DNA of 64,000 nucleotides from Escherichia coli (GTDB lineage Bacteria; Pseudomonadota; Gammaproteobacteria; Enterobacterales; Enterobacteriaceae), in the NCBI RefSeq assembly GCF_044324785.1, contig NZ_CP172127.1, one strand, 5' to 3'. A program made the position numbers and the translations under genes. The notes below the pieces were generated by a model. That model made no database searches. It was not told where the DNA came from and saw only the letters and a list, made by a program, of their open reading frames with translations. Of the stretch, positions 2 to 61,667 are shown one piece after another (position 1 is the stretch's first letter; every line of letters starts with the position of its first letter).

Positions 2-457
<456 letters not shown>

Positions 458-1393: not shown

Positions 1394-1409
1394 ATCAGGC
1401 TCCGGAGAA

Positions 1410-1456
1410 TTGGGGCCGTCCCCGGTGAAAAGACGCGTTTGCAGGTCGTCCTGCAA
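1410..1456 (-). ncRNA. guanidine-II (mini-ykkC) riboswitch-like element in the sugE leader
   Basis: two short hairpins each with an ACGR loop (GGGGACGGCCCC and GCAGGACGACCTGC on the minus strand) immediately upstream of the gdx start. Confidence 0.55.
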
Positions 1457-1567
1457 AGCTGATGGTTGAACGGATATTTTGCCAGGTGGCAGAGGAATTT
1501 CAACTATTACCTTTGTGACTATCGCAAAAAAACAAACGGCACGACACAGCTGCCGTACCGTTATTGC

Positions 1568-1714
1568 TTATTGCTGCGCTTTCGTTGCTGCGCCAGAAAT
1601 CGCGTTACCGCCATCAGAAATGTCTTCACCAACGCCACGCGTGGTGTTGCAGGCAGTTAATACTGTTGAAAGCACCAGAACAGAAAAGATCGCTGCAATT
1701 GTCTTCTTCACCAT
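1568..1714 (-). CDS. ecnB: entericidin B lipoprotein
   Basis: 48-aa product [48 protein letters not shown]; below the 60-aa cutoff of the ORF track. Confidence 0.9.
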
Positions 1715-1824
1715 AACGTCTTCCTTTTAGGTAATGTTATTTATGTTTGCCTATAGCAAATTAATAATAGACAACATCGCCAAAAATGATGGAAATCTGA
1801 TGATTTTTCGGAAGAGAAGAAAAA

Positions 1825-1950
1825 TTAGCTGGCAGCGCGGGAGATGGAGTTGCCGAGGTGTTTGATATCTTCGCCGAAACCGCGAGCGGTGTTACAGCCC
1901 GTAAGCAGCGTGCTGGCAAGCAAAACAAGAACGATAAGGCGTTTCATCAT
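1825..1950 (-). CDS. ecnA: entericidin A lipoprotein
   Basis: 41-aa product MMKRLIVLVLLASTLLTGCNTARGFGEDIKHLGNSISRAAS; below the ORF-track cutoff. Confidence 0.9.
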   Translation of the reverse strand: MMKRLIVLVLLASTLLTGCNTARGFGEDIKHLGNSISRAAS

Positions 1951-2001
1951 CTCTAACCTGAATAAGTGATGGTGCAGCCTGCAGGCCGCACCACAACCGC
2001 A

Positions 2002-2568
2002 TTACTTCACGCGAGAGACGTATTCACCAGAGCGGGTATCCACTTTGATGACTTCGCCGATTTGTACAAACAGCGGAACTTTAACCACAGCGCCAGTAGA
2101 CAGGGTAGCCGGTTTGCCGCCAGTACCTGCGGTATCACCTTTCAGGCCCGGATCGGTATCCACGATTTCCAGTTCAACGAAGTTCGGTGGAGTAACGGAG
2201 ATCGGCTGACCATTCCACAGAGTTACGATACACTCTGCCTGATCCAGCAACCATTTGGCGTTGTCGCCAATTGCTTTTGCATCAGCAGACAGCTGCTCGA
2301 AAGTTTCGTTGTTCATGAAGTGCCAGAACTCACCGTCGTTGTACAGGTAAGTCAGGTTCATATCGACAACATCAGCGCCTTCAGCGGAATCAGTAGATTT
2401 GAAGGTTTTTTCTACGCGAGTACCGGTCAGCAGACGACGCAGTTTAACGCGAGCAAATGCCTGGCCTTTACCCGGTTTTACGAATTCACTCGCTTCAACC
2501 GCGTAAGGTTCGCCGTCTAACATGATTTTAAGACCAGCACGAAAATCGTTGCTATAGTACGTTGCCAT
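2002..2568 (-). CDS. efp: elongation factor P
   Basis: 188-aa [25 protein letters not shown]...; K-12 synteny. Confidence 0.95.
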
Positions 2569-2609
2569 AAGGCCCTCTGAAATTTGTTAATTGGTAGCTA
2601 AGCCACAAA

Positions 2610-3638
2610 ATGGCGCATATTGTAACCCTAAATACCCCATCCAGAGAAGATTGGTTAACGCAACTTGCCGATGTTGTGACCGATCCTGATGAACTTCTGC
2701 GTCTTTTGAATATAGACGCGGACGAAAAACTGTTGGCCGGACGCAGCGCCAAAAAGCTTTTTGCCCTGCGTGTGCCCCGCTCATTTATCGATCGCATGGA
2801 GAAAGGCAATCCGAACGATCCGCTTTTGCGTCAGGTAATTACCTCGCAAGATGAGTTTGTCGTCGCGCCCGGATTCTCCACCGACCCGCTGGAAGAACAG
2901 CACAGCGTAGTGCCAGGTTTGTTGCATAAATACCACAACCGGGCGCTTTTGCTGGTCAAAGGCGGCTGCGCGGTAAATTGCCGCTATTGCTTCCGTCGCC
3001 ACTTCCCCTATGCCGAAAATCAGGGCAACAAGCGTAACTGGCAGACTGCACTTGAGTATGTTGCTGCGCATCCGGAACTGGACGAGATGATTTTCTCCGG
3101 CGGCGATCCGCTGATGGCGAAAGATCACGAGCTGGACTGGTTGCTCACACAACTGGAAGCCATCCCGCATATCAAACGTCTGCGGATTCACAGCCGTCTG
3201 CCGATTGTGATCCCGGCACGCATCACAAATGCGCTGGTTGAACGCTTTTCACATTCTACGCTGCAAATCTTGCTGGTGAATCACATCAACCATGCCAATG
3301 AGATAGATGAAACATTCCGTCAGGCGATGGCTAAGTTGCGCCGGGTAGGCGTTACTTTGCTGAACCAGAGCGTTCTGTTACGTGGCGTGAACGATAACGC
3401 GCAAACGCTGGCAAACCTGAGTAATGCGTTGTTCGATGCGGGCGTGATGCCGTATTACCTGCATGTGCTCGATAAAGTTCAGGGCGCGGCGCATTTTATG
3501 GTGAGTGATGACGAAGCACGGCAGATTATGCGTGAGTTGCTGACACTGGTGTCGGGATATCTGGTGCCTAAACTGGCGCGAGAAATTGGCGGCGAACCCA
3601 GCAAAACGCCGTTGGATCTCCAGCTACGCCAGCAGTAA
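2610..3638 (+). CDS. epmB: EF-P beta-lysylation enzyme EpmB (lysine 2,3-aminomutase-like radical SAM)
   Basis: 342-aa ORF with CxxxCxxC radical-SAM motif (CAVNCRYCFRRHF); divergent from efp. Confidence 0.9.
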   Translation: MAHIVTLNTPSREDWLTQLADVVTDPDELLRLLNIDADEKLLAGRSAKKLFALRVPRSFIDRMEKGNPNDPLLRQVITSQDEFVVAPGFSTDPLEEQHSVVPGLLHKYHNRALLLVKGGCAVNCRYCFRRHFPYAENQGNKRNWQTALEYVAAHPELDEMIFSGGDPLMAKDHELDWLLTQLEAIPHIKRLRIHSRLPIVIPARITNALVERFSHSTLQILLVNHINHANEIDETFRQAMAKLRRVGVTLLNQSVLLRGVNDNAQTLANLSNALFDAGVMPYYLHVLDKVQGAAHFMVSDDEARQIMRELLTLVSGYLVPKLAREIGGEPSKTPLDLQLRQQ

Positions 3639-4791: not shown

Positions 4792-5145
4792 TCAGTTCGG
4801 GCACTTATATACCTGGCCGATAATCTGGCTATCCGTCGGGACAAAACTGGACAACATCCCCTGCGACGGGCTGCTGATGCCATAAATCACGTTACCGCCC
4901 ATTGCAGCCGCCTGGTTGCGCAGATCGTTTGCTGCGCCGCGCATAGAACCGCCCTCTTCACCGTGTTGCCCGGAAAGCCAGTTGCTTTGCTTACCTGTCG
5001 CAGTACCAATCAGCTGGCACTCTGCGCCTGGCTGCTCGTCCACAATGCGTACACTCTGACCGGCAGCACTCAATTCGTTGCTGGAGCTACAACCCGCCAT
5101 CAGTAGCGCGGCACCGACAATCCCTGCTAAGTATTTTACGTGCAT
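4792..5145 (-). CDS. yjeI: putative lipoprotein YjeI
   Basis: 117-aa product MHVKYLAGIVGAALLMAGCSS... with lipobox; ORF-track N-terminal extension discarded. Confidence 0.8.
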   Translation of the reverse strand: MHVKYLAGIVGAALLMAGCSSSNELSAAGQSVRIVDEQPGAECQLIGTATGKQSNWLSGQHGEEGGSMRGAANDLRNQAAAMGGNVIYGISSPSQGMLSSFVPTDSQIIGQVYKCPN

Positions 5146-5225
5146 GTTATTCCCCATAATCAATGAGCTGGACGCCACTCGCGTCGTCCGTGTCTGAATC
5201 TTATACTAGAAAGATGACCAAAAGA

Positions 5226-5262
5226 AAAACCCCCAGACATTTCTGCCCGGGGGTTTGTTTAT
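5226..5262. terminator. bidirectional rho-independent terminator between groL and yjeI
   Basis: AAAAACCCCCagacatttctgcccGGGGGTTTgtttattt: GC stem flanked by A-run and T-run. Confidence 0.6.
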
Positions 5263-44918: not shown

Positions 44919-46499
44919 TCAGGTGCCGATTATGCCGCCGTCGGCTTTTACGATAACGACAGTTGAGGAGCGCGGACGACCAGCCTTATCGCCGTCAGGC
45001 CAGCTTGATACTGCCGTCGGATGCTGCGGATCGCTAAGCCCTTCGCTTGGCTCGCCAGGGTGCTGGATGTTAATAAACAGCGTCCGGTTATCCGGAGTGA
45101 ACGCGATGCCGGTGATTTCGCAGCCGCGCGGGCCGGTCAGGAAGCGGCGGAACTCATTGGTACCGGGGATCGTCGCCACCATCTGGTTGTTGCCCATGCC
45201 TTTGTAATCTTTAATATTTATGGTTGATGACGACACGTCGGTCTGGATCCATAGCACGCCGCGGTGATCAAAGCTCAGGCCATCGGCGCTGCCGAATTCC
45301 GCACCCTTCATGCTGCCTTTGGTTTCCAGTTTGTCTGTATCGGTGCGACCGCCCATCACAAGAATATCCCAGGCAAACTGCAGCGCGGTCGGGTCACCGT
45401 TATGCTCCAACCAGTGAATGATGTGGCCGTAAACGTTTTTGGCGCGCGGGTTGGCCGCATCCACTGGCGCTTTTCCTTCCTTACCGCGATCGCTGTTGTT
45501 GGTGAGCGTGCAGTAAACGCTGCCGGCGTGATATGGATCGACCGCAATCCACTCCGGGCGGTCCATTTTAGTGGCCCCCACGGCGTCTGCCGCCAGACGG
45601 GTTTTAATCAACAGGTCGCCCTGGTTTTCAAACCCTTTACTGGCGTCGAGCCCATTTTGTCCGAACACCAGCGGTAGCCACTCGCCTTTGCCGTCGTCGT
45701 TAAATTTCGCCACGTACAGAGTGCCTTTTTCCAGCAGGTGCATGTTGGCTTTGCGATCCTGCGGGTTGAATTTTCCTTCCGAGACAAATTTATATATGTA
45801 TTCGAATTTCTGGTCATCGCCCATATAGACCACAACGCGGTTATCCGGGGCAATTGTCACCGCTGCGCCTTCGTGTTTGATGCGACCAAGCGCGGTGTGC
45901 TTGCGCGGCACTGAATGCGGATCGTATGGATCGATTTCCACCACCCAGCCGAAGCGGTTCGGCTCGTTCGGCGTGGCGTCGACGCTGAACCTTTTATCCA
46001 CTTCGTTCCAGCGGTAAGAGTCGTCGCTCCCGCTGATACCGTAACGTTTTTCCAGCGGGTTCATCTCTGCTTTTTTTACGAAAATATCGGACCAGTTCTC
46101 TTCACACGTCAGATAGGTGCCCCACGGCGTAAATCCGTTGGCACAGTTCTGCATGGTGCCGAGAATGATTTCGCCTTTCGGATCGTCAACTGTTTGCATC
46201 AGTGGGTTATGCAGCGCCGGACCGGTGATTTTCATCGGCGTGTTAACGGTGATGCGGCGTGCGAACGATGACGGGCGCACCACTTCCCAGCCCAGGGGCA
46301 CTTTTTTTACTTCAATGACCGACACGCCCATCGCGTTCTGGCCTTTAAGAGCTTTATCGGCGCTCCAGTTGGCATCGCCATCTTTAAACAGTAGACCGTT
46401 ATCGATGTATTCATGGTTTATGGCAAGCAGGCCGTGATCGGAGCTGTTCCCTGATGCGCCGCGCGATAAATGCACTCTATCTTGTGCGATAAATGGCAT
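44919..46499 (-). pseudogene. PhoX-like (DUF839) phosphatase, N-terminally truncated at the prophage junction
   Basis: 526-aa ORF lacking a signal peptide and N-terminal region; homology starts near ...GLLAINHEY...; upstream end abuts the invertase end of the prophage. Confidence 0.5.
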
Positions 46500-46529: not shown

Positions 46530-47102
46530 TTACATTTCAGGTTGCGTTATGACAGTCCCAACAGGGTGGTAGCGGTAGATCGTTGACAGTCCAATATCAT
46601 AGATAATTGCCAGCCGCTTTCTGTCATACCCTTTCTGGAGCAATCTTGCGATCTGCTCATGCTGCTCCTTCGTCAGTTTCGGGCGACGTCCTCCAACTCT
46701 TCCTTGTGCTCGCGCAGCAGCCAGTCCTGCCAGCGTGCGCTCAACTATCAGTTCACGCTCCATTTCTGCCAGTGCACCCATCATATGAAAAAAGAACCTT
46801 CCCATCGGAGTGCTGGTATCGATTGAATCCGTCAGACTGCGAAAATTGACACCTTTTGCGCGTAGCTCTTCTGTGAGAGCAATGAGGTGTTTCATTCTTC
46901 TACCCAACCGATCCAGCTTCCAGACCACCAATGTATCCCCTCTTTTAAGGCACTTTAAAGCGCGTTTCAGGCCTGGTCGTTCCGACTTGGTTCCGCTCAT
47001 TTTGTCCTCAAAAATCTGTTCACATCCTGCGCACATTAATGCATTGCGTTGCAAATCTGTGTTTTGGTCATTTGTTGACACACGTATGTAGCCAATCAGC
47101 AT
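46530..47102 (-). CDS. site-specific DNA invertase (serine recombinase, Gin/Pin/Cin/Hin family)
   Basis: 190-aa product MLIGYIRVSTNDQNTDLQ... with catalytic Ser in YIRVST and C-terminal HTH; adjacent to inverted tail-fibre cassettes. Confidence 0.9.
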   Translation of the reverse strand: MLIGYIRVSTNDQNTDLQRNALMCAGCEQIFEDKMSGTKSERPGLKRALKCLKRGDTLVVWKLDRLGRRMKHLIALTEELRAKGVNFRSLTDSIDTSTPMGRFFFHMMGALAEMERELIVERTLAGLAAARAQGRVGGRRPKLTKEQHEQIARLLQKGYDRKRLAIIYDIGLSTIYRYHPVGTVITQPEM

Positions 47103-47156
47103 TAAAAATACTCCCTTTTGAGTGGTTAAAGTACTGAGATAATGTGGGGAGGATTT

Positions 47157-47182
47157 GAGAGATAAACGTTGGTTTAGGAGAA
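47157..47182. promoter_or_regulatory. candidate gix/cix-like crossover site 1
   Basis: GAGAGATAAACG-TT-GGTTTAGGAGAA; right half matches the gix half-site GGTTTTGGATAA at 10 of 12 positions; lies at the start of cassette C. Confidence 0.5.
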
Positions 47183-47686
47183 GGCTCGGCGCTACCCGTT
47201 GGTGTGCCTGTTCCGTGGCCCACCGCCACACCGCCAGCAGGCTGGTTAAAGTGCGACGGGCGCGCCTTTACAAAAGAACAATATCCTGTTCTGGCCAGAG
47301 TCTACCCGACCCTCCGTCTTCCCGATTTACGCGGTGAGTTTATCCGTGGATGGGACGACGGGCGCAAAGTTGATACAGGACGTAAGTTGCTGTCCGCACA
47401 AGGGGCAACGCTGTTAAGAACAGCAATGCTGGATTATTATAACCAGGACACTACGGGAACCTCGGGGATAGTCGGCATGGGATTCAACAATGAAGATTCC
47501 ATTACAGACCTTCGTGAGGGCAGCTTTAAAATGCCGGACGGGACAACATTCAGCGATCCTGTCGTGGCAATGTCAGACAATGGTATGCAGGCTACTATTC
47601 TGACCTCTATCAGAAGCGGGTATGCGAAGGGTATCACTGTCAGACCCCGTAGCATTGCACTTAATTACATTGTGAGGGCAGTTTAA
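47162..47686 (+). CDS. tail-fibre C-terminal (receptor-binding) cassette C, promoterless, inverted relative to the tail-fibre gene
   Basis: reading frame open from 47159 (no ATG) encoding NVGLGEGSALPVGVPVPWPTATPPAGW...RGWDDGRK...NYIVRAV, homologous to the C-terminus of the 642-aa tail fibre. Confidence 0.7.
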   Translation: MNVGLGEGSALPVGVPVPWPTATPPAGWLKCDGRAFTKEQYPVLARVYPTLRLPDLRGEFIRGWDDGRKVDTGRKLLSAQGATLLRTAMLDYYNQDTTGTSGIVGMGFNNEDSITDLREGSFKMPDGTTFSDPVVAMSDNGMQATILTSIRSGYAKGITVRPRSIALNYIVRAV

Positions 47687-48300
47687 TGAGTAACACTGCA
47701 GTTCTGGATGAAAACGGTATCGCCACTGTAGCGGGCGAGATCACTGTATATCACTATGACGAGGAAACCCGGGAATACACCTCATCCTCTGTGGAGTATC
47801 TCGCCCTTGGGGTGGGTACTCCGGCACATTCGTGCGCCGATGCACCGCCGGAGGCAATTTCGGGTTACGTGGTTTGCCGGACTGCCACGCTGAACGGGTG
47901 GGAGCATGTGCCTGATCACCGCGGCGAGACGGTATACAGCACGGAGAACGGTAACCCCGTTCTGATTACCCAACCGGGTGATTACCCGGCGGACACCACC
48001 ACAAAACAGCCGGCCACGCCATGGGATACCTGGAACGGTGAGGCGTGGGTAACCGATACTGAACGGCAGCGAGCCGCAGAACTGGAGGTTGCCAGACAGC
48101 AACGCCAGCAACGGGTGAAACAGGCGATGGCGTCCGTCGATCTTATCAACCTCAAACTGCGTGCTGGTCGCAGTCTGACACCAGAAGAAACGGCAAAACT
48201 GAACGCCGTGCTGGATTATATCGACGAGCTGAACGCACTGGATATCAGCACGGCACCTGAAATCAGCTGGCCGGAAGCGCCACTGGCACTTGCCAGCTGA
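47686..48300 (+). CDS. tail-fibre assembly protein (Tfa/U-type chaperone)
   Basis: 204-aa ORF overlapping the end of cassette C (ATGA), in the usual position of a tail-fibre chaperone. Confidence 0.7.
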   Translation: MSNTAVLDENGIATVAGEITVYHYDEETREYTSSSVEYLALGVGTPAHSCADAPPEAISGYVVCRTATLNGWEHVPDHRGETVYSTENGNPVLITQPGDYPADTTTKQPATPWDTWNGEAWVTDTERQRAAELEVARQQRQQRVKQAMASVDLINLKLRAGRSLTPEETAKLNAVLDYIDELNALDISTAPEISWPEAPLALAS

Positions 48301-48306
48301 ACGGTA

Positions 48307-48780
48307 TCACGCCGCCCTCACGATATAGTTAAACGCGATATTGCGGGGGCGGGTTATGTTAAAGAATGCTCCGTTTAATTCGGCTTTTGCGCGACTGTTT
48401 GTTCCACCCAGAATTGCGTACCACAAATAATCGCTACGGTAATTCCCCGCAAACACCTTATCGCCGCCATAGTCAATATTATTTCCGTTACTCATGTACG
48501 AGATATCCAGCGAAGAATCGTTATCGTCATGACCGCCGACCAGTGTACCTTTCTGCCATGAAAGCAACTTACGCCCCTCGTCAATCTTGCGCCCGTCGTC
48601 CCATCCACGGATAAACTCACCGCGTAAATCGGGAAGACGGAGGGTCGGGTAGACTCTGGCCAGAACAGGATATTGTTCTTTGGTGAACGTAGCTCCGTTG
48701 CACTGTAACCAGCCTGCTGGCGGTGTGGCGGTGGGCCACGGAACAGGCACACCAACAGGCAATGCAGAGCCTTCCCCCAA
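48307..48780 (-). CDS. tail-fibre C-terminal cassette B (alternative receptor-binding domain)
   Basis: 157-aa ORF (TTG start) GEGSALPVGVPVPWPTATPPAGWLQCNGATF...NYIVRAA; frame open upstream through crossover site 2. Confidence 0.65.
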   Translation of the reverse strand: MGEGSALPVGVPVPWPTATPPAGWLQCNGATFTKEQYPVLARVYPTLRLPDLRGEFIRGWDDGRKIDEGRKLLSWQKGTLVGGHDDNDSSLDISYMSNGNNIDYGGDKVFAGNYRSDYLWYAILGGTNSRAKAELNGAFFNITRPRNIAFNYIVRAA

Positions 48781-48795
48781 ACCAACGTTTTTATG
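48770..48795. promoter_or_regulatory. candidate gix/cix-like crossover site 2
   Basis: reverse complement CATAAAAACG-TT-GGTTTGGGGGAAGG, inverted relative to site 1; lies between the tail-fibre stop and cassette B. Confidence 0.5.
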
Positions 48796-50719
48796 CGGCC
48801 CTTACGATGTAATTAAACGCAACATTGCGGGGGCGCATTGATATCCATGCCCCGGTAAAATTATCCTCCGCTGTCCTTTGAATACCCGTTATAGAGTTAT
48901 CTGCTGATGCAGGAACATAATCGCTATTATTTCCTGCTTTAGGATTAGCTGGGTTTCCAACGGTTATAACAGAATCAGCAGTAGCAAAAGCGATACCTAC
49001 TTTGACATTAGTATTCAGATCGTAACCGTAATAATCCTGCAAAGCTGTACGAATAAATGTTGCAGCCTGACCACTTAGCAATGAACGCCCCGTATCAACT
49101 TTGCGCCCGTCGTCCCATCCACGGATAAACTCACCGCGCAAATCGGGAAGACGGAGGGTCGGGTAGACTCTGGCCAGAACAGGATATTGTTCTTTTGTAA
49201 AGGCGCGCCCGTCACACTTTAACCAGCCTGCTGGCGGTGTGGCGGTGGGCCATGGAACAGGCACACCAACAGGCAGTGCAGAGCCTTCCCCCAAACCAAG
49301 GTAATTGAGGACATCTTTTATACTGCCCTTAGCGATAATAGCGCGACCAATAGCTGTAAGGGTTGCCAGCGCTGCGCGGTCTGCTCCGGTAAAATAAGGC
49401 AACCGATCTGCTGCAGTGGCAAGTCCTGCCAGAGCAGTGAGCGTGGCATCTGCCGGTTGTTTTCCGTTTGCCAGATCGTATGCAGCCTTGACCGCTTTCG
49501 GTGTGGCGGCCAGTATTTCAGACGTGCTGTTGATGGCACTGCTCAATTGTATGGTGCCTTTTGCCGTCAGCGAGGCAGCAGGCACTCCCGTTATCTGACT
49601 CCACGGGTGAGTGTGGCTGACGGGCGCCTTGCCGGCTGCAAGGTCGTATGCAGCCTTGACCGCCTTCGGCGTGGCAGCCTCAGTTTCTGATTGACTGTCC
49701 GTGGCGCTGCTCAGTTGTACGGTGCCTTTTGCCGTCAGCGAGGCAGCAGGCACTCCCGTTATCTGACTCCACGGGTGAGTGTGGCTGACGGGGGCCTTGC
49801 CGGCAGCCAGGTCATATGCAGCCTTGACGGCCTTTGGTGTGGCGGCCAGCGTTTCAGAGGTGCTGTTGGTGGCACTGCTCAGTTGTACGATCCCTTTACG
49901 GGTCGTTGTTGCATCCTGGGCTGTGTATTTTCCCCGGGCCAGATCATACGCGATTTTCACAGCCTTCGGCGTGGCAGCCTCAGTTTCTGATTGACTGTCC
50001 GTGGCGCTGCTCAGTTGTACGGTGCCTTTTGCCGTCAGCGAGGCAGCAGGCACTCCCGTTATCTGACTCCACGGGTGAGTGTGGCTGACGGGGGCCTTGC
50101 CGGCAGCTAGGTCATATGCAGCCTTGACGGCCTTTGGTGTGGCGGCCAGCGTTTCAGAGGTGCTGTTGGTGGCACTGCTCAGTTGTACGATCCCTTTACG
50201 GGTCGTTGTTGCATCCTGGGCTGTGTATTTTCCCCGGGCCAGATCATACGCGATTTTCACAGCCTTCGGCGTGGCAGCCTCAGTTTCTGATTGACTGTCC
50301 GTGGCACTGCTCAGCTGTACGGTGCCTTTTGCCGTCAGCGAGGCAGCAGGCACTCCCGTTATCTGACTCCACGGGTGAGTGTGACTGACGGGTGCCTTGC
50401 CGGCTGCAAGGTCGTATGCAGCCTTGACGGCTTTTGGTGTGGCGGCCAGCGTTTCAGAGGTGCTGTTGGTGGCACTGCTCAGTTGGGTGAACCCCTTAGC
50501 TGTCAGTGTCGCGTCCGGGTGGTTACGGGAACGTACGTGTTCAGCCAGTGACTGTGCGGCTTCCTCCGTTTTTTTCTTCAGCCATTTCGTCCTGTTTGCC
50601 AGTTGCCGGGGGGCTCGATTTGATATCCCGTCAGCACCACCCAGAACCGGATCTGATGTCTCCAGTTGATAGATTTTTTCTTCCCACTTTTCTGTTTCAT
50701 TCAGGTTTCCCATAATCAA
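48791..50719 (-). CDS. phage tail fibre protein with repeat-containing shaft and C-terminal domain A
   Basis: 642-aa ORF; central about 100-aa tandem repeats (SETLAATPKAVKAAYDLAAGK...); C-terminus GLGEGSALPVGVPVPWPT...NYIVRAA. Confidence 0.85.
   Translation of the reverse strand: MIMGNLNETEKWEEKIYQLETSDPVLGGADGISNRAPRQLANRTKWLKKKTEEAAQSLAEHVRSRNHPDATLTAKGFTQLSSATNSTSETLAATPKAVKAAYDLAAGKAPVSHTHPWSQITGVPAASLTAKGTVQLSSATDSQSETEAATPKAVKIAYDLARGKYTAQDATTTRKGIVQLSSATNSTSETLAATPKAVKAAYDLAAGKAPVSHTHPWSQITGVPAASLTAKGTVQLSSATDSQSETEAATPKAVKIAYDLARGKYTAQDATTTRKGIVQLSSATNSTSETLAATPKAVKAAYDLAAGKAPVSHTHPWSQITGVPAASLTAKGTVQLSSATDSQSETEAATPKAVKAAYDLAAGKAPVSHTHPWSQITGVPAASLTAKGTIQLSSAINSTSEILAATPKAVKAAYDLANGKQPADATLTALAGLATAADRLPYFTGADRAALATLTAIGRAIIAKGSIKDVLNYLGLGEGSALPVGVPVPWPTATPPAGWLKCDGRAFTKEQYPVLARVYPTLRLPDLRGEFIRGWDDGRKVDTGRSLLSGQAATFIRTALQDYYGYDLNTNVKVGIAFATADSVITVGNPANPKAGNNSDYVPASADNSITGIQRTAEDNFTGAWISMRPRNVAFNYIVRAA
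49284..49309. promoter_or_regulatory. candidate crossover site 3 inside the tail-fibre gene
   Basis: reverse complement CTCAATTACC-TT-GGTTTGGGGGAAGG encoding NYLGLGEG at the constant/variable junction; same orientation as site 2. Confidence 0.4.
49390..50520. repeat. 300-bp tandem repeats (about 3.5 copies) inside the tail-fibre gene
   Basis: identical 71-aa and 84-aa antisense ORFs recur 300 bp apart (49779/50079 and 49834/50134); protein shows repeated ...SSATNSTSETLAATPKAVKAAYDLAAGKAPVSHTHPWSQITGVPAASLTAKGTVQLSSATDSQSETEAATPKAVK... Confidence 0.85.
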
Positions 50720-52782: not shown

Positions 52783-53379
52783 TCAGTGGGAGTGGTGGCT
52801 GGAGTTTTCGCCATCAGACAACATACTGCCCGTGGCATGGGCATTCCCTTTAATCTCGATATTGCCATGGATGGTCGCGGTAACACCTTCACCACCAGAA
52901 CCCGCCATGCCTCCTTCGTAAATCAGCTTACCCCTGACACGCAGATCTCCGGTAAGTTCGGTTTCCGGTGCGTCAATCGTGGCTTTCTGTGTTTTCAATA
53001 CCACATCAGCACCACACTCAATGACAATATGCTCAATGCCGCCCCGGATGATCAGAGTGTGCGTCTTCCGGTTGTAGCTGTACTCTGCACCATCAGCAAA
53101 CCGGGTTCCCCGGATATTTTTGTCACTGAACGGTGGTTTATCGACGTCTGAATACACCGCGCCCAGAATAACACCATCCTCGCCGTTGGCATCGAGCAGC
53201 ACCTCAACCTGCTCCCCCACGTCAGGGAGCCAGTAATCTTTGTTATCCTGGGTATTGCGCTGCAGCACGTTAAGCCAGTTTGTGCGCAGGTTATCGCATT
53301 CAGGCAGACGAACGCGGGCCTGAACCCTGTCGGCATCAACGGCACTGACCGTACCGACCTGACGAGTGACACCAGTCAT
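52783..53379 (-). CDS. phage baseplate assembly protein V (spike)
   Basis: 198-aa ORF with OB-fold-like N-terminus and glycine-rich C-terminus. Confidence 0.65.
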   Translation of the reverse strand: MTGVTRQVGTVSAVDADRVQARVRLPECDNLRTNWLNVLQRNTQDNKDYWLPDVGEQVEVLLDANGEDGVILGAVYSDVDKPPFSDKNIRGTRFADGAEYSYNRKTHTLIIRGGIEHIVIECGADVVLKTQKATIDAPETELTGDLRVRGKLIYEGGMAGSGGEGVTATIHGNIEIKGNAHATGSMLSDGENSSHHSH

Positions 53380-54548
53380 TTTTTCTTCTCTCTTATTACT
53401 GTGGACGTGCTGCCGTCCGGTTTATAGATGGTCAGCATCCGGGTTTTGCCGATTTTTTTACCTTTCTTCGCCTTGCCCTGTGTGATCGGCCCCCGTGCCA
53501 CTTCCAGCTCTGTGGTGTAGCCGCTGTTACGGTCAAACGCATGGCGGGCAGTGGTTATGAGCCATGGCCCGGATAACTGCCCAAAACCCACCAGTTCAAT
53601 TTTGTTGCCTGCTGTCAGTTGAGGTGTTCCCGTCAGCGTCAGGGAGCCGTTCTGCTGGTATTCGTTATGTCTGGCCAGTGCTGAATCCGCTTTAATCCGG
53701 GCACTGTCCGGGTCGCTGACGCGGCTGTTAACTTTAAGTGAGTCAGCGCTGGTAACCTTACCACCTTTGAGCTTTTTGTCGCTTTCACGGGTACCACCAT
53801 CAGCTTCGTAGACGATCAGTTTTTTACTGCTGCTTTTCTGGTGTTTTACCTTTGCAGATTTATAGACCCGGTTGATGGTGTCACGCAGGGAAAAGCGGGC
53901 CACATCCTGCGGTTTTAACTGCCTGACCGGCTCCTGACTGCGCAGTGTGGCCAGATGAGAAAAAATCAGCTGGTCACTGACCACTTTCACTGCATAACCA
54001 TACTCGCTGGCCAGCCGGCGCAGAAAACCCACGTCGGTTTCAGCATACTGGGTCACCCGGTCGATTCTGATGGACTCAATGCTGCCCACCAGTTTCAGCC
54101 GGTGCTTTCTGGCAATCCGCCCCGCAACAGCTGCCAGCGTGGTGTTCTCAAAACCACGACTGGTTTTAGTCCGCAGGGCACTGTTAACCGAGGTGGCCAC
54201 CCCACGGATAGAAACAACGGAAGCGGGCGAACTCACTTCGATCTCGTCTATAGAGAACGTACCGCAGGACAGCAGCTTCTCGTCCTGATAGCCCATTTTC
54301 AGCGTCAGCGTGTCACCCTTGCCCGGATACCACTTATCCAGCCAGCGGCCATCGGTGTCGTCCAGCTCCACCTCAATGGTATCGGACTCATTTTTGATGT
54401 TATCGCTCCAGGTCACACGGGTGACATAAGGCGCGATATCAGAGGTGATGTTTTTCTGCAGATACCACAGAGTGAACACCGGTGTCAGCACATCGCTGAC
54501 GCCGGTTAACGCTGATGTGACTTGCGCAGTGCTGTTTATCTCAGCCAT
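53376..54548 (-). CDS. phage tail protein (P2 gpD / Mu P-like, late control D family)
   Basis: 390-aa ORF between the X/U-like and V-like genes. Confidence 0.65.
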   Translation of the reverse strand: MAEINSTAQVTSALTGVSDVLTPVFTLWYLQKNITSDIAPYVTRVTWSDNIKNESDTIEVELDDTDGRWLDKWYPGKGDTLTLKMGYQDEKLLSCGTFSIDEIEVSSPASVVSIRGVATSVNSALRTKTSRGFENTTLAAVAGRIARKHRLKLVGSIESIRIDRVTQYAETDVGFLRRLASEYGYAVKVVSDQLIFSHLATLRSQEPVRQLKPQDVARFSLRDTINRVYKSAKVKHQKSSSKKLIVYEADGGTRESDKKLKGGKVTSADSLKVNSRVSDPDSARIKADSALARHNEYQQNGSLTLTGTPQLTAGNKIELVGFGQLSGPWLITTARHAFDRNSGYTTELEVARGPITQGKAKKGKKIGKTRMLTIYKPDGSTSTVIREKKK

Positions 54549-54751
54549 GGGGCAATATCCTCTTCTGTACGGGCTTCTTCAGCCTCAATCACCGGGATCA
54601 GTAACAACAGCCCGGAGGGCAGCACCGGCGTGATGGCCACGTGCGGATTGGCGGCAATAATCCGGGGATAGCCCAGCGGGTCACCGTAGTACTGCCATGC
54701 CAGCGAATCCCAGCGCTCTCCGTCACGGGTAACATGTTCAAGAAACATCAC
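54536..54751 (-). CDS. phage tail protein X-like (small LysM-like tail protein)
   Basis: 71-aa ORF overlapping neighbours in the tail operon. Confidence 0.55.
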   Translation of the reverse strand: MMFLEHVTRDGERWDSLAWQYYGDPLGYPRIIAANPHVAITPVLPSGLLLLIPVIEAEEARTEEDIAPWLR

Positions 54752-55632
54752 ACACTCCTCGTCAGTATTCTGGCGGCCATTGCACTTAATCCCGGAGACA
54801 TGCGGTTGAATGCTGTTCCGACGGCGTTAAGCTGCCCGGAAACGGTATCCAGAGCACCTGCAATATTTCTTTTGTCCACACCACTCAGCGCAGACTGTGC
54901 CTGCTGTACATACGTGGCTGCTTCGCTGGCTGTTCTGGCCAGACTGATGGCATCGGGCATGGATTCAGAGAGTGCGTTAAACGCCGGAACACTTTTCCCC
55001 AGAGCCCCGGAGATATTACCCAGTCCGCTCATCAGCCCCGGCACACGGGTCAGTGCGACAACGGGGTTATCCTTCATTTTCTGTGTCACCCGAACGGCGC
55101 TGATAGTGGTCTGGAGTACAGACTGCGCCTGTTTCGCATAGTTGACGCCGTTGCGGATGAACTGCGCCACCCCGGAAGGTGAAGGAATGGCACCGGAGAC
55201 CGCCCCGACACCCGGGAGCTTCGTGCGTATTGCCGGTGGTTGCAGAGGATTTTTCGGGTCACCGGTGTATTCCCGGAGAGACACGGTGGCACTGACAGCC
55301 AGCACGTTGCCGGTACTGTCAGTCTGCTCGCTGGTTGCAGTCACATCGGTAATCACGAACCAGCCGCGATAGTCACCGTTGCCGAAGACCAGCGCCAGTG
55401 CCTGATGGGCTTTCATGGCTGTTCGCAGTCTCGCCAGCTCCACATCGGGTACACAATAATGCTGATGGAAAACCAGAGTTATCTGGATTTCGTCCAGCCT
55501 GTCGCCGACGAACTGCAGGCCAGGCTTACCCCCGATGCGGGCATGCTCCGCATAATCGACGCCGAACGTGGCCTCGAAGCCGTCCCAGTAGGTAATCAGC
55601 TCAAACTCAATATCACCCAGTACGGCAAACAT
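54748..55632 (-). CDS. phage tail protein (gpU-like N-terminal domain with C-terminal extension)
   Basis: 294-aa ORF immediately after the tape measure gene; ...GDYRGWFVITDV... resembles gpU. Confidence 0.55.
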   Translation of the reverse strand: MFAVLGDIEFELITYWDGFEATFGVDYAEHARIGGKPGLQFVGDRLDEIQITLVFHQHYCVPDVELARLRTAMKAHQALALVFGNGDYRGWFVITDVTATSEQTDSTGNVLAVSATVSLREYTGDPKNPLQPPAIRTKLPGVGAVSGAIPSPSGVAQFIRNGVNYAKQAQSVLQTTISAVRVTQKMKDNPVVALTRVPGLMSGLGNISGALGKSVPAFNALSESMPDAISLARTASEAATYVQQAQSALSGVDKRNIAGALDTVSGQLNAVGTAFNRMSPGLSAMAARILTRSV

Positions 55633-58600
55633 CAGCGGTACTCCTTACGTTGTTTCTGAGCCAGCAGACGCTCCAGCATTTTTTCCAGCTCATGCAGACT
55701 CATATTCAGGGCACCAGTCAGTCCTGCAGGCGCTGTGGTTTCCCTGCCATTGAGGAAAAACTGAGGATTAAAGCTGACCTGGATACCACCAGACGTTCCA
55801 CCGCCGGTTGCAGCTGCACCACGGCCTGAATATCCGGCAGCCAGGATTTCAGGCGAGGGGATACGGGGAACATCCGGTGTCATCTCATTTGCCAGACGTT
55901 GCCCTGGTAAAATCGATGCCCGGGTGGAGAGCGGAATAACGGGCATGGAAGACAAACTATTGATTACGGCTCCGATCGCATTTTTAGCAGACGACATAAA
56001 CCCATTGATATCGGGCAACGGCATACTGAAGCGAACACCTGAAGTGTTATCCCGTATTTCTGGCCCCTGAATGCTCACGGGCATTCTGGGGAGCAGTTCA
56101 CTGGCCATTCGCTGCCCGGCCAGAGCTGCAAGCGGAGTGGTCCGCTGCAGGCCAATGGCGGCCCCCTGCGCGATATTGTCACCAAAGCCCATAAACACGC
56201 GGCTCGGCGAATGAATGCCCAGCTTTTCGCTGAACCAGCCACTGATGCTGTCACCCATTCCGGTTACACTGGATTTGAGCGACTCCCATTTGTTTTTGAT
56301 ACCGTTAATCAGACCGTCGACAAGATGGCCACCGAAGTCGGTGAACTTTGCCGGCAGATCAACACCAAGATATTTCAGCGCAGCTGCAAAGGCTTTATAG
56401 AGCAGACCTGCCGGCGACCAGTTAATCAGCAGCTTACCAGTTCCCGCGATACCGCCGTTAAAGGCTTCCTGAATGTCAGCCCAGCACTGTTTAAACCAGC
56501 TACTGATGCTGTCACCCATTCCGGTTACACTGGATTTGAGCGACCCCCATTTGTTTTTGATACCGTTAATCAGACCGTCGATAAGATGGCCACCGAAGTC
56601 GGTGAACTTTGCCGGCAGAGCAACGCCGAAATATTTCAGCGCAGCCGCAAAGGCTTTATAGAGCAGGCCTGCCGGCGACCAGTTAATCAGCAACTTACCA
56701 ATTCCCACAATGCCGCCGTTAAAGGCTTCCTGAATGTCAGCCCAGCGCTGTTTAAACCAGCTACTGATGCTGTCACCCATTCCGGTTACACTGGATTTGA
56801 GCGACCCCCATTTGCTTTTGATACCGTTAATCAGACCGTCGATAAGATGGCCACCGAAGTCGGTGAACTTTGCCGGCAGAGCAACGCCGAAATATTTCAG
56901 CGCAGCCGCAAAGGCTTTATAGAGCAGGCCTGCCGGCGACCAGTTAATCAGCAACTTACCAATTCCCACAATGCCGCCGTTAAAGGCTTCCTGAATGTCA
57001 GCCCAGCGCTGTTTAAACCAACCACTGACAGCCCCCCAGTTGCGGTAGATAAGGTAAGCTGCTGTCGCGACAGCGGTGATAACGAGACCGATGGGATTCA
57101 TCATCAGCGCTCGCCCAATCCAGAGAACGGCACGTGCAGCGCTCATAAAACCGCGAACGAGGCTGCCCGCCAGAACTTTGCTGAGTTTCAGTCCTCCGCT
57201 GGTCAGTCGGCTGAATCCAGTGACAAGCCAGCGTAATTTGCCACCTTCTCCGAGTGCGGTAGTCAGTCGATGCCAGTTGGTCCGGAGTAAAACAGTAGTT
57301 TTCCAGACGTTCACAAAGGGGGAAATAAGGAGATTCAGCCCCAGTTTGAGACCAATAGTCGCTATCTTAATCGCAAGGAGCGCACTGATGAGCTTAAAAG
57401 CCCCACTGACAAATTGCGGGTGAGTCGCTACCCAGTGTTTTGTCCCCTGAATGAGTGGGAGCAGTTCCTGAGTCAGAGAAATAAAAGATGGAGCTAATTG
57501 ATCGCCCAGCGTAATTGCCAGATCGCGACTGCTGACCATAAGTGTTTTAGTGGCTTCAAGGGGAGATTTCAGCCGCTGATCATAAGCACTGGCAAGCAAA
57601 TCGTTATCCGCAGCCCTGAGAGCACCGGCACGGATCTCTCGATATCTGTCCATGTTGGCCAGCATCGGGCGGATAAATGCCATGACCTGCATATCCGCGA
57701 ACATATCGCCCAGACCAAAGTTTTTCGCCAGAGCCTGAAGTGCCTCATCTCTTGCCGTATCATTCTTTATTTTCATGGCTGATTTGAAGCCGGCCAGCGC
57801 TTCGGGGCTTTTGGCATTGAGGTAACGTTCTATAACACTCAACATCCCTTCAATCGGAGAGATCCCCGCAGCTTTATAACTCGCAATAGATCCCTGCAAA
57901 TCAATACCCAGATCAGCAAACTGTTTCTGAGTATCGCGGGCAAAAATTTTGGTAAGAAAGTTTTTAAAATTATTGGCTGCTTCGTCGGTGGAACCTGCAC
58001 CGATTTTTGCTATCTGGAGACTGGCCCCGATTTCAGCAACAGCCTCTTTTCCACTGGCAAGACCCGCCATCATTGGGGCCAGGGACTGCATCCACTTGAC
58101 CTGATCCGGGATTTCAAATGACCCCTGGTCACCGGCATAAGCCATAATATTCTGAACGGCACCAAAATCTCTGGCCGCACCTTTCAGGGAGTTTTGCCAG
58201 ACTGCGGCCACTTTTGCCCAGTCCTGAGCAGACGTGCGTGTTGCCGTTGCCGCGCGGGCAATATCCGGCATCAGAAAACCGATATCTGACACATTATCAA
58301 TATTGTCGCTGATGAGTGAACCCACCGCCTCCTGCAGCTCATCCTGATACTGATTGTATTTAAGCGCCCAGCCTTTTATCTGTCCGGCAAGTGCATCCCG
58401 CGTTTTATTGTCATATTTTGCGGTGATCGACATATCAATCATTTTGTCCTGAAAAGACATGGACTGCTGAACGGCAGGGGAAACCGTATGATAAACAGTC
58501 TGTGCCATGCCATACGCTTCAATCCCCTGACCATACAGCGCCATGCGGTTAGCTTTCAGCGCATCACTGGTAGCGGATGCCGCTGACAGACGGCGCTGCT

Positions 58601-58844
58601 GGCGCTCAATTTGCTCCATGGTGCGGCTTACCCGCAGCAGCTCGCTGTTGAGATGCTGCATCCGGGAAGAACCCAGTTGACCATAACGTTCTGTTGCACG
58701 GGTTAAAGCGTTCTGACGTTCCTGCAGGCGGCGTGAGGTATCGCTCAGGGAATCAAGCGCACGGCGGGTACCGCTCATTGCAGAACGGAATGTGCTGCCA
58801 ATCATCCCGCCGATAACAACGCCGACTGAAAACTGTCCCGACAT
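55632..58844 (-). CDS. phage tail tape measure protein
   Basis: 1070-aa ORF with coiled-coil N-terminus, hydrophobic segments and internal tandem repeats, downstream of the chaperone pair. Confidence 0.85.
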   Translation of the reverse strand: MSGQFSVGVVIGGMIGSTFRSAMSGTRRALDSLSDTSRRLQERQNALTRATERYGQLGSSRMQHLNSELLRVSRTMEQIERQQRRLSAASATSDALKANRMALYGQGIEAYGMAQTVYHTVSPAVQQSMSFQDKMIDMSITAKYDNKTRDALAGQIKGWALKYNQYQDELQEAVGSLISDNIDNVSDIGFLMPDIARAATATRTSAQDWAKVAAVWQNSLKGAARDFGAVQNIMAYAGDQGSFEIPDQVKWMQSLAPMMAGLASGKEAVAEIGASLQIAKIGAGSTDEAANNFKNFLTKIFARDTQKQFADLGIDLQGSIASYKAAGISPIEGMLSVIERYLNAKSPEALAGFKSAMKIKNDTARDEALQALAKNFGLGDMFADMQVMAFIRPMLANMDRYREIRAGALRAADNDLLASAYDQRLKSPLEATKTLMVSSRDLAITLGDQLAPSFISLTQELLPLIQGTKHWVATHPQFVSGAFKLISALLAIKIATIGLKLGLNLLISPFVNVWKTTVLLRTNWHRLTTALGEGGKLRWLVTGFSRLTSGGLKLSKVLAGSLVRGFMSAARAVLWIGRALMMNPIGLVITAVATAAYLIYRNWGAVSGWFKQRWADIQEAFNGGIVGIGKLLINWSPAGLLYKAFAAALKYFGVALPAKFTDFGGHLIDGLINGIKSKWGSLKSSVTGMGDSISSWFKQRWADIQEAFNGGIVGIGKLLINWSPAGLLYKAFAAALKYFGVALPAKFTDFGGHLIDGLINGIKNKWGSLKSSVTGMGDSISSWFKQCWADIQEAFNGGIAGTGKLLINWSPAGLLYKAFAAALKYLGVDLPAKFTDFGGHLVDGLINGIKNKWESLKSSVTGMGDSISGWFSEKLGIHSPSRVFMGFGDNIAQGAAIGLQRTTPLAALAGQRMASELLPRMPVSIQGPEIRDNTSGVRFSMPLPDINGFMSSAKNAIGAVINSLSSMPVIPLSTRASILPGQRLANEMTPDVPRIPSPEILAAGYSGRGAAATGGGTSGGIQVSFNPQFFLNGRETTAPAGLTGALNMSLHELEKMLERLLAQKQRKEYR
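56200..57010. repeat. 261-bp tandem repeats (3 copies) inside the tape measure gene
   Basis: near-identical 87-aa units SSWFKQRWADIQEAFNGGIVGIGKLLINWSPAGLLYKAFAAALKYFGVALPAKFTDFGGHLIDGLINGIK; antisense ORFs at 56215, 56473, 56734. Confidence 0.85.
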
Positions 58845-58919: not shown

Positions 58920-59177
58920 CTATGATTTGTCGCCGTACTCGCTTTTGATTTGCTCTTCAGCCTGCTCCAGCCACATCTCCAGATCGTCAGTATCGAGGGC
59001 ATCAATCTCCCCCGGCTGAAACCGGAACCATCTCGCCAGCAGCCCCTGCGCCTGCGTCAGCGCCCTGGTTGCTCTCACCCATCCCCGTGATGAGCTGAAA
59101 TCGTTTCTGTAACTGCAGGTAATCAGCCAGATCCATATTGTCGAGATCTTCCGGGAGAAGACCAGTACTGCGGGCAA
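58920..59177 (-). CDS. tail assembly chaperone frameshift extension (GT/E'-like), probable programmed frameshift product
   Basis: 85-aa ORF overlapping the 3' part of the 111-aa chaperone ORF in another frame. Confidence 0.4.
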   Translation of the reverse strand: MPAVLVFSRKISTIWIWLITCSYRNDFSSSRGWVRATRALTQAQGLLARWFRFQPGEIDALDTDDLEMWLEQAEEQIKSEYGDKS

Positions 59178-59337
59178 TCAGCGGTTCGTCCCAGTCTGCC
59201 GGGTTTTTGCTGATTTTGCGCACCTGCTTCAGGTCTTTTACCGTCAGGCGTTTCAGTTCAACCAGCTCAATTCTGGTGCCTGCAGCAGTGGTGAAGGGAT
59301 AAGACAATTTAAAAGTATCGGATGGGGTCTGTGACAT
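59002..59337 (-). CDS. tail assembly chaperone (G/E-like)
   Basis: 111-aa acidic ORF immediately upstream of the tape measure gene. Confidence 0.55.
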   Translation of the reverse strand: MSQTPSDTFKLSYPFTTAAGTRIELVELKRLTVKDLKQVRKISKNPADWDEPLIARSTGLLPEDLDNMDLADYLQLQKRFQLITGMGESNQGADAGAGAAGEMVPVSAGGD

Positions 59338-59718: not shown

Positions 59719-60240
59719 TCAGCCCCCGATATTGATACGGTAGTCAGTCAGTTGATCAACACCGCCGACCCGGAAGATGTTGGCCAGATAGTCCAGTTGC
59801 AGCAGCTCTTCACCATCCAGTACCTGTCTGATATACGTGCAGGTGAAGCTACTGGAGAACTCGGCGTTCTCGTGCTGTTTGAACGTCCCCAGCGGGTTCT
59901 TCTTGAACATAATCGTCAGGAAGGTGACCAGCGGGATTTCGTCAATCAGCCCCTGCGAGCTGTAGCGCTGGACGCTGGAACGACACTGCAGTGCCAGCGA
60001 CCTGTACGGGTTCGCGGCAGACAGCATCGCATCGCGGTAAAAGCTGTTCCATTTGATTTCGCCTTCCAGCTTGTCAAAACCAGCCGGGAGTTCCACCTTA
60101 CCCACCATCCCCAGCGCCTTGTGTTCCTGCATAATCATGGAGACATCGGGGAGTTTGACTTCCTCAGCCCGTCCCAGCAGGTTAGTACCATCCAGATAGA
60201 TGTTGGCATTCGTGATGCGGTTTATCTCAATCTTTGACAT
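59719..60240 (-). CDS. phage tail tube protein
   Basis: 173-aa ORF directly downstream of the sheath gene. Confidence 0.75.
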   Translation of the reverse strand: MSKIEINRITNANIYLDGTNLLGRAEEVKLPDVSMIMQEHKALGMVGKVELPAGFDKLEGEIKWNSFYRDAMLSAANPYRSLALQCRSSVQRYSSQGLIDEIPLVTFLTIMFKKNPLGTFKQHENAEFSSSFTCTYIRQVLDGEELLQLDYLANIFRVGGVDQLTDYRINIGG

Positions 60241-61667
60241 CAGTTGCCCCCTTTCAGGGTTAACAGGTATTCCGAGGTGATCTCAGTCTCAAACGTCAGT
60301 CGCTCCAGCGGCGGTGGTGGCGTATATTTGTAGCTCAGCAACAGGTGCCCGGCGGCCAGCTCCGTCTCCGGATTGCGGGCCGGATCAAACCAGCAACGGA
60401 AGCCCAGTACCGCACCATCACCAGTCATTTTGCGACCGTAGGCGTTGACCGACTCCGTCAGTGCATCAATCAGCGCCTGAGTAATCGGCATGTCGATGTA
60501 CTGCTGGCTGAAATAACGAATGGACTCGTTGATCACATCACCGGTGCGGCGAACGTTCTCAAAGTTACGCATATGGGTGACCGTTGGCCATGCTGCCGTC
60601 CGGTTACCCCACAGACGAAGGCCGCTGCCGTAACTGCTGAATACCGTGGTGATCCCCTGTTCGTTAAGCAGGTTCACCTCACTCTGCGGGTCATCAATCA
60701 TCGCGGACAGCTGGCGCTCCACGCCGGTGATCCCCAGAATCTCCTGATTGGAGGATGACCACCAGTAGCCCTTGTCCAGATCGACTCTGGCACGCAGACC
60801 TGCTGCACGCTGGCTGAGCGGCTCCAGACGCTCTGTGTTTGTCACCGGGTCATATACCTTCACATGCGGATAGCACAGACGGACGCGGTCGGAGCTGGTA
60901 TTGAAGTTGATGGTGCCTTCCGGGCCACGACCTGCCAGAGCCTGTGCAAAGGTGGTACCGACAGGCGCATCAATGTAGGTTACCGCGCCCAGCTTCTCTG
61001 CCATGGCGATAAGCTCAACTGCGACACTCTTCTGGGTGCAGAACACCGGCGCAATCAGAATTTTGGCGAAATAGCCGTACAGGTTGAAGCTGTCGTTAAG
61101 CAGCTTCATGCCGGTTCGGTTTCCGGCGCTGTTCACCCCGCCGATGATGTCCGCCGCAGTCACCTTCGACGGGTCCGCGTACTCATAGCTCACCTTCACG
61201 CTGCCACCGGCCTCAATAGCCTTGCCCAGGTTCGTGAGCACACCCGCCTGCGCATCAACACGGTAGTCCGTGTTCGCCGTGTGGGTGGTGCTGCCTTCAC
61301 TGTTTTTCACCACCACATTAGCGACAACCGGATGCGCCAGTCTGGCCTGCCCTGTCGATTTGTCAAAGGTAACCACCTCATCCTCGATCGCCGTTTTATG
61401 TTTCGCCGGGTCGAGGACGTTAATGACCAGAACGGTGCCTGCACCATGGTCATAAATCGCATCCAGCGCCTGCGGAATGGTAAAGCCGGTGAACTGGCTG
61501 CCAAATGCCGCTGCGTCTTTCTCAGACAGGCACTGTACCAGCGTATTGACATCCCCCATCGGGGCGGTACCAATCAGGCCAATAACGGCAGATTTCACCG
61601 TTTTAACCGGGCGGGCACCGTTTTCCACCTCAATGGTTTCGGGACCATGCAGATAGTTAGCTGCCAT
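60240..61667 (-). CDS. phage contractile tail sheath protein
   Basis: 475-aa ORF MAANYLHGPETIEVENGARPVKTVKSAVIGLIGTAP..., followed by the tube gene. Confidence 0.85.
   Translation of the reverse strand: MAANYLHGPETIEVENGARPVKTVKSAVIGLIGTAPMGDVNTLVQCLSEKDAAAFGSQFTGFTIPQALDAIYDHGAGTVLVINVLDPAKHKTAIEDEVVTFDKSTGQARLAHPVVANVVVKNSEGSTTHTANTDYRVDAQAGVLTNLGKAIEAGGSVKVSYEYADPSKVTAADIIGGVNSAGNRTGMKLLNDSFNLYGYFAKILIAPVFCTQKSVAVELIAMAEKLGAVTYIDAPVGTTFAQALAGRGPEGTINFNTSSDRVRLCYPHVKVYDPVTNTERLEPLSQRAAGLRARVDLDKGYWWSSSNQEILGITGVERQLSAMIDDPQSEVNLLNEQGITTVFSSYGSGLRLWGNRTAAWPTVTHMRNFENVRRTGDVINESIRYFSQQYIDMPITQALIDALTESVNAYGRKMTGDGAVLGFRCWFDPARNPETELAAGHLLLSYKYTPPPPLERLTFETEITSEYLLTLKGGN

Follow-up and report, generated by a model that had tools for sequence, protein, structure and literature searches.

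Three tandem copies of an 87-residue module, variable in number between genomes, in the tape measure gene of an Escherichia coli prophage

The length of the tape measure protein sets the length of a phage tail, and in long-tailed phages the polymerisation of tube and sheath along this protein ends once it is fully covered. Duplication and loss of internal segments are how tape measure genes evolve. In a 64,000-nucleotide stretch of Escherichia coli DNA (contig NZ_CP172127.1; the whole stretch is hereafter called the window), a prophage tape measure gene contains a unit of 261 nucleotides (nt) three times in tandem. Is this array genuine, how did it come to hold three copies, and what would it mean for the tail? 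Taking all observations together, we consider it probable that the locus is best explained by a recent in-frame triplication, produced by exchange between units paired out of register, in which every unit would lengthen the tail by about 13 nm.

Tandem Repeats Finder reported one array at positions 56233-57028 of the window, with a period of 261 nt, 3.0 copies, 96% matches, 0% indels and a score of 1466. A seed-and-extend search, used as a second method, also found three copies, with spacings of 261 and 261 nt and with 95% and 93% identity to the reference copy. The 261-nt stretches flanking the array on both sides gave no alignment to the unit, so the number of copies is exactly three, and a match this long and this identical cannot arise by chance. 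The array is in frame within a minus-strand open reading frame (ORF) of 1070 amino acids (aa) at 55632-58844; the gene therefore runs from right to left in window coordinates. Both searches bear out the initial annotation, which had described three near-identical tandem repeats of 261 bp (an 87-aa unit). The span given there, 56200-57010, denotes the same object, with ends that lie about 20-30 nt off. The array and its immediate surroundings comprise the following features.

56233-57028: tandem array located irrespective of frame (period 261, 3.0 copies; Tandem Repeats Finder and seed-and-extend search).
57045-57098, minus strand: hydrophobic helix NPIGLVITAVATAAYLIY, aa 583-600, directly upstream of the array.
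56760-57020, minus strand: unit 1, aa 609-695, first-type, carrying S69.
56499-56759, minus strand: unit 2, aa 696-782, first-type, the same as unit 1 of the two-unit allele of S7.
56238-56498, minus strand: unit 3, aa 783-869, last-type, the same as the last unit of S7.
56193-56237, minus strand: conserved motif WFSEKLGIHSPSRVF, aa 870-884, closing the array 3' of unit 3.

Units 1 and 2 differ at a single one of their 261 nt, in codon 69 (AGC/AAC, S/N). Unit 3 is further away, with 15-16 nt of difference from units 1 and 2; the 15 that separate it from unit 2 change eight residues. Two types of unit can be told apart, which have diverged by about 6%: the first-type has R5, V18, I20, F44, A47, I60, G72 and S87, and the last-type has C5, A18, T20, L44, D47, V60, E72 and G87. 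The order in the window is first, first, last, and that in the common two-unit allele is first, then last. The closing motif WFSEKLGIHSPSRVF begins with the residues WF, a repeat of the unit start, and includes the nearly invariant alignment columns W148, F149, L153, G154, I155, S157, P158, S159, V161 and F162. The hydrophobic helix NPIGLVITAVATAAYLIY is kept in relatives, with the consensus NPIGLAITAIAAAAYLIY in their alignment, and is helical in an AlphaFold model. An ORF of 341 aa on the opposite strand to the tape measure gene (56211-57236, plus strand) spans the whole array; the lack of a stop codon within the unit in this frame keeps the ORF open, and it is probably not a gene.

The possibility that the array is an assembly artefact, which the initial annotation had also raised, would mean that the true gene has one or two units and that the third stems from mis-assembly. 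Units 1 and 2, one nucleotide apart, are beyond the resolution of short reads, and the repeat is known to break assemblies. The relative PhiKM was isolated as a virus, and its record (PQ738613.1) has a sequencing gap exactly at the repeat (4914-5240); clusters of 'partial' tape measure proteins, with 100-900 members, end at contig edges. Nevertheless, an artefact is barely credible here. Among complete E. coli genome records, 26 contain the 3213-nt gene without gaps and at the highest possible score, a few of them being duplicates of one assembly, and over 45 contain it at 99.9% identity or more; the roughly two dozen complete genomes with the identical three-unit gene come from independent projects. 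Furthermore, each unit has its own diagnostic substitutions, three-unit alleles with differing internal mosaics exist, and the ORF is intact in every allele. In strains AR_0081, DA33135, CU39ES-1, MS20675, 3347558, EC11 and CD306, the distance from the identical three-unit gene to the prophage end is 8.5-9 kb, and the host gene next to that end is yjjI, gspL, flgA, irp1, phnP, yqhA or ybaP, depending on the strain. Since an identical gene adjoins different host genes, the three-unit allele must have spread by independent insertions, and its distribution argues that it is part of a working phage. Two-unit alleles, too, are carried by working phages. The difficulties caused by the repeat extend to annotation: in AVS0973 (NZ_CP124471.1 locus, 301-3513), the Prokaryotic Genome Annotation Pipeline (PGAP) splits an intact three-unit gene into two pseudogene fragments. 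As the repeat breaks or collapses short-read assemblies and misleads automatic annotation, its copy number in draft genomes is not to be trusted.

A comparison with related prophages, as the initial annotation had proposed, revealed that complete genomes hold one, two or three units. In a nucleotide comparison against a collection of 5426 genomes, 635 matched the gene, 585 of them with a place covering at least 80% of it. Copy-number frequencies were taken from 60 evenly spaced records among these 635, with the following result.

Span of 3213 nt, three units: 14 of 60 records (about 23%).
Span of 2952 nt, two units: 38 of 60 records (about 63%).
Span of 2691 nt, one unit: 2 of 60 records (about 3%).
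More distant or truncated gene: 6 of 60 records.

Translation gave intact ORFs with three, two or one units, and the protein database has close relatives with lengths of 1070, 983 or 896 aa, corresponding to three, two or one units; the largest protein cluster (1995 members) has two. The two-unit state is the commonest one and probably the parent of the other alleles. No allele with four or more units was present among the best 120 full-length relatives, and for a synthetic query of five units, coverage did not exceed about 61%, which corresponds to three units. A singleton sequence, P0001 (1084 aa, from one contig), has a different duplication of 101 residues (EGGKLRW...GTGKLL), which spans the hydrophobic segment upstream of the array together with residues 1-24 of the unit and has its junction at a short GKL match. 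This is either an independent new duplication or a mis-assembly.

Three comparisons between prophages reveal changes by a single unit against a constant background. S7, with two units, shows no difference from the window in the 1824 + 606 nt (2430 nt) of the gene outside the array, and its units equal units 2 and 3 of the window; the two prophages are inserted at different places in the chromosome, and 14 kb of their sequence align at 99.8-99.9% identity. This absence of flanking differences, together with the single nucleotide that separates units 1 and 2, agrees with the recent duplication suggested in the initial annotation. The prophages of 2/0 (two units) and AVS0947 (one unit) lie at the same aroA-serC site and differ, outside the array, at 0 of 13,324 and 1 of 12,106 nt. 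In the single unit of AVS0947, the first 92 nt equal those of unit 1 of 2/0, and everything from nt 14 onward equals unit 2; because this unit matches both parent units, it is the product of an in-place crossover, with the switch between nt 14 and 92 of the unit. Alleles thus differ by whole units in otherwise identical sequence in both pairs.

A third comparison involves AVS0973 (three units) and TUM1857 (one unit), which have one diverged gene background in common. In the middle unit of AVS0973, a last-type 5' part is joined to a first-type 3' part, and the sole unit of TUM1857 has the opposite arrangement, with a first-type 5' part and a last-type 3' part; both switches fall between codons 20 and 44. 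These two units are the reciprocal products expected of a first-last allele that pairs one unit out of register, so that reciprocal chimeric units, a signature of homologous exchange in this manner, are found in expanded and contracted alleles. One-unit alleles have a first-type 5' part and a last-type 3' part, with crossover points that differ among them, and further three-unit and one-unit mosaics with other switch points occur among the database clusters. As there are several mosaics with different switch points, expansion and contraction have each taken place several times. Most of the about 70 differences between the window gene and those of TUM1857 and AVS0973 are located in a diverged patch of 170 nt directly upstream of the array (57145-57313; nt 1532-1700 of the gene), which suggests that a more distant tape measure gene was the partner in a recombination event.

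We propose that the length and similarity of the 261-nt units suffice for out-of-register pairing, and that an exchange between misaligned units would add or remove exactly one unit while keeping the frame. For the molecular route of exchange that we infer, there are several candidates: sister chromosomes or phage genomes may have undergone unequal crossing-over, which would depend on RecA, or gene conversion, or replication may have slipped; the sequence fits all of these. Such exchanges would leave the population with alleles of one, two or three units (896, 983 or 1070 aa). Alternatively, the alleles could be old, stable lineages that carry ancient insertions or deletions, their chimeric units having come from ordinary phage recombination. 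These phages are mosaic, the diverged patch is present in some alleles, and the divergence of about 6% between the two unit types means that the first duplication is not a recent one. However, prophages one unit apart are otherwise identical at all 2430 nt compared in one case, and in the other, with a shared insertion site, differ by 1 nt in about 25,400, one-unit alleles differ in their crossover points, and reciprocal chimeras occur within one gene background. Old lineages are therefore a highly improbable explanation, and recurrent recent exchange between misaligned units is retained here as the probable origin of the alleles.

The repeated module itself is widespread in tape measure-like proteins. 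When the unit alone was searched against 1.84 billion cluster representatives (E up to 0.001), at least 604 of these were matched, and all matches examined were tape measure-like, with the unit in the C-terminal third. Among matched proteins of at least 700 aa, 57 had one copy, 23 had two, eight had three and three had four. Tandem periods in the matches were 76 (the commonest), 83, 87, 105 and 113 aa, with sub-segments repeated at 42-50 residues, and copies within one protein were 35-74% identical. Because registers, periods and copy divergence vary, the region has been duplicated independently in many lineages, of which the E. coli duplication is the youngest. The periods of 42-44 residues in distant relatives prompted us to consider a structure of two halves of about 43 residues within the unit, which was rejected as the profile-profile probability was 0.3%; lineages with such periods have duplicated sub-segments of the unit.

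Across aligned relatives with one copy, there are invariant W, G, P and F positions, and conservation is strong in the closing motif GWFxxKLGIxSPSRVF. The ratio of non-synonymous to synonymous substitution rates (dN/dS) between the first-type and last-type units is 0.32, a value that reflects purifying selection between them. An AlphaFold model of the one-unit region (217 residues, 30 aligned relatives) is nearly all helix, with four helices in the unit, a mean predicted local distance difference test (pLDDT) score of 76 and a predicted template modelling (pTM) score of 0.37, the latter indicating that there is no compact fold. The only match to a solved structure was a weak one (E 0.0037), to chain M ('Gp14', 674 aa) of PDB entry 9m8o, in which query residues 590-694, containing the hydrophobic helix and the unit region, align with residues 486-577 of the chain; this structure may show the position of the module in the tail.

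What would an additional unit do to the tail? In phage TP901-1, the tail measured 118 nm, and 65 nm once 347 residues had been removed, which amounts to about 0.15 nm per residue; the shortening was proportional for deletions in the repeat and in the hydrophobic regions alike (PMC5099701). A shorter tape measure gene gave a proportionally shorter tail in phage lambda (PMC3271669), and in T4 the tube polymerises around gp29, the equivalent protein of a contractile tail (PMC8718954). Tube rings of different phages are 3.85-4.28 nm thick (PMC8718954). By analogy, each 87-residue unit should add about 13 nm, or 3.0-3.4 rings of tube and sheath, and the tails of the shortest and longest alleles should be about 26 nm apart. 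This effect on tail length is what we infer from these other phages; any effect of copy number on fitness is likewise putative.

The polymorphism could also be real and leave the tail length unchanged, if the module folds back or is a membrane-inserting part that is ejected; its copy number would then be neutral or alter DNA delivery. The unit follows a hydrophobic helix and, unlike a simple spacer, is strongly conserved, with its invariant W, G, P and F. The glycine- and proline-containing breaks between the four modelled helices could permit hairpins, and tape measure proteins have been proposed to form a membrane pore (PMC8718954). Against this stand the proportional shortening of the TP901-1 tail by deletions in both of the regions mentioned (PMC5099701), the pTM of 0.37, which speaks against a compact domain, and the duplication of the same region with many periods elsewhere, as expected if length, and not a precise fold, varies. 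We consider an unchanged tail length unlikely. On a more speculative note, and with little confidence, the array may act as a fast 'length switch', in which ongoing exchange between units would keep generating phage subpopulations with tails in steps of about three rings, under selection by the thickness of the host envelope, capsule or O-antigen, or the module may line or cross the envelope during DNA delivery, its copy number tuning delivery and not length. If either were true, the natural near-isogenic series with one, two and three units would be a test system for the purpose of tail length.

Several points weigh against our preferred explanation of recent out-of-register exchange with a ruler-like effect on the tail. 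The ruler rule has been shown experimentally in lambda, TP901-1 and T4, which is outside Mu-like or P2-like tails, and we know of no tail-length experiment for this Mu-like phage group. The structure model is that of a monomer, of moderate confidence, and is silent on how the protein is arranged as a trimer within the tube. For a passive spacer, the unit is conserved more than would be necessary, and it may have a role besides length, for instance in the crossing of the envelope that has been proposed for tape measure proteins. The copy-number frequencies come from 60 of 635 records, which are dominated by clinical lineages such as sequence type 131 (ST131), and a collapse during assembly could account for some of the one-unit alleles in short-read drafts. 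Finally, S69, carried by unit 1 of the window, is also present in some two-unit alleles, and by the S69/N69 marker either the window or the S7 allele could have come first.

The identity of the gene as a tape measure gene, as initially annotated, was confirmed by matches to PF10145 (E 1.3e-20, 74.6 bits against a cut-off of 33.2, aa 159-340), TIGR01760 'tape_meas_TP901' (59.8 bits against a cut-off of 28.8) and PHROG 28 'tail length tape measure protein' (E 2e-135), and by its position among other tail genes; PHROG 5690 was also matched, and RefSeq labels identical copies 'phage tail tape measure protein'. Together with the helicity of the 217-residue region modelled around one unit, these matches to curated models and the gene position are what is expected of this family. 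The following tail genes and domain were identified.

55632-58844, minus strand: tape measure protein gene (1070 aa, 3213 nt; PF10145, TIGR01760, PHROG 28 / 5690).
57825-58370, minus strand: N-terminal PhageMin_Tail domain of the tape measure protein, aa 159-340 (PF10145).
60240-61667, minus strand: contractile tail sheath protein (PF04984 and PF17482).
59719-60240, minus strand: tail tube protein (PF04985, E 2.9e-53).
59002-59337, minus strand: gpE-like tail assembly chaperone, directly upstream of the tape measure gene (PF10109, E 5.5e-21).
54748-55632, minus strand: gpU-like tail protein, directly downstream of the tape measure gene (PF06995, E 7.4e-39).
53376-54548, in minus-strand order after the gpX-like gene: gpD-like gene.

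The order on the minus strand is sheath, tube, chaperone, tape measure, gpU-like, gpX-like, gpD-like, baseplate genes and tail fibre. Relatives hold Mu-type head genes (DUF935 portal, gpF- and gpG-like, Gp37 and gp436). The prophage ends at about position 46452 of the window, and the host gene that adjoins this end differs in nearly every genome (yjjI, gspL, flgA, irp1, phnP, yqhA, ybaP, yeiB, emrA, fliZ and others). On account of the tail gene order, the Mu-type head genes and the varied insertion sites, the phage is classified here as a Mu-like, transposable phage with a contractile tail. In the window, the prophage splits a PhoX-family ORF (44919-46499, minus strand) of an accessory region with iron ATP-binding cassette (ABC) transporter genes. 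This prophage/PhoX junction was found in none of the complete E. coli genomes of the collection, the best coverage being 88%. Collinearity of the whole window with NZ_CP029747.1, in which the gene matches at 100% and the flank runs from ygcN to barA, was ruled out, as matches are limited to positions from 46452 onward.

Other variable elements were observed in the tail-fibre region of the prophage. A second in-frame tandem repeat at 49662-50485 has a period of 300 nt (100 aa), 2.7 copies, 98% matches and a score of 1585, and overlaps an older 168-nt array (49469-49897); both are located in the tail-fibre gene (48791-50719, minus strand). Relatives differ across this repeat region, and the length of the fibre may vary too. 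The prophage end contains an ORF of the recombinase family, a Gin-like invertase (46530-47231). An adjacent segment (47169-48790) is 100% identical yet inverted in comparison with strain 2016C-3878, and a segment at 47164-48351 is also inverted in comparison with S7. The segment near the Gin-like ORF is an invertible tail-fibre segment for host range, as in Mu.

In its family signatures (PF10145, TIGR01760), its position after the chaperone gene and its helicity, the protein described here is like lambda gpH, the TP901-1 tape measure protein and T4 gp29. In those phages, engineered in-frame deletions and duplications change the tail length proportionally (PMC5099701; PMC3271669; PMC8718954), whereas the alleles described here are natural ones, and the step is one fixed module of 87 residues in a Mu-like prophage with a contractile tail. 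Natural variation was reported by Belcaid et al. (2011), who described tape measure repeats of 11 or 11-11-18 residues, marked by aromatic residues and variable in number, that are duplicated and lost (PMC3271669); short aromatic-marked repeats in tape measure proteins are also attributed by these authors to Siponen et al. (PMC3271669). Mahony et al. (2016) suggested that repeats ease the gain and loss of length (PMC5099701). The present locus shares with the class of Belcaid et al. tandem repeats that vary in number between related phages. However, its unit is 87 and not 11 residues long, and the published [FW] spacings were not matched: neither the [FW]-x10 x7 nor the 11-11-18 pattern occurs anywhere in the 1070-aa protein. 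With a DNA identity of 94-99.6% between copies, the exchanges and their reciprocal products can be followed at single-base resolution. The locus is outside the 11-residue class and has the same way of working with a much larger unit.

The alpha C protein of group B streptococci has in-frame repeats of 246 bp that expand and contract by homologous exchange. It has in common with the locus described here long, near-identical in-frame units, allele steps of whole units and out-of-register homologous pairing. Repeats of the alpha C type, however, belong to surface antigens under immune pressure, and the present one to a ruler of virion assembly. The likeness to Mu gp42 and P2 gpT consists of gene order, Mu-type head genes and many insertion sites, and was judged by position, not by residues. 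Of the isolated phages, PhiKM is the closest, and GenBank lists it under Bcepmuvirus. A search of the literature for this polymorphism, or for natural variation of tape measure repeats in Mu-like prophages of E. coli, found nothing specific, which is not proof of absence.

We conclude that the repeat is real and variable, and that it represents an ordinary kind of tape measure evolution. It is an unusually clean natural example of this, with a single step of 87 residues, alleles of one, two and three steps, and near-isogenic prophages of sequenced and available E. coli strains, and both reciprocal products of the exchange are visible at the locus. The natural series would allow the ruler rule, and any relation of tail length to fitness, to be tested in a Mu-like contractile phage without engineering.

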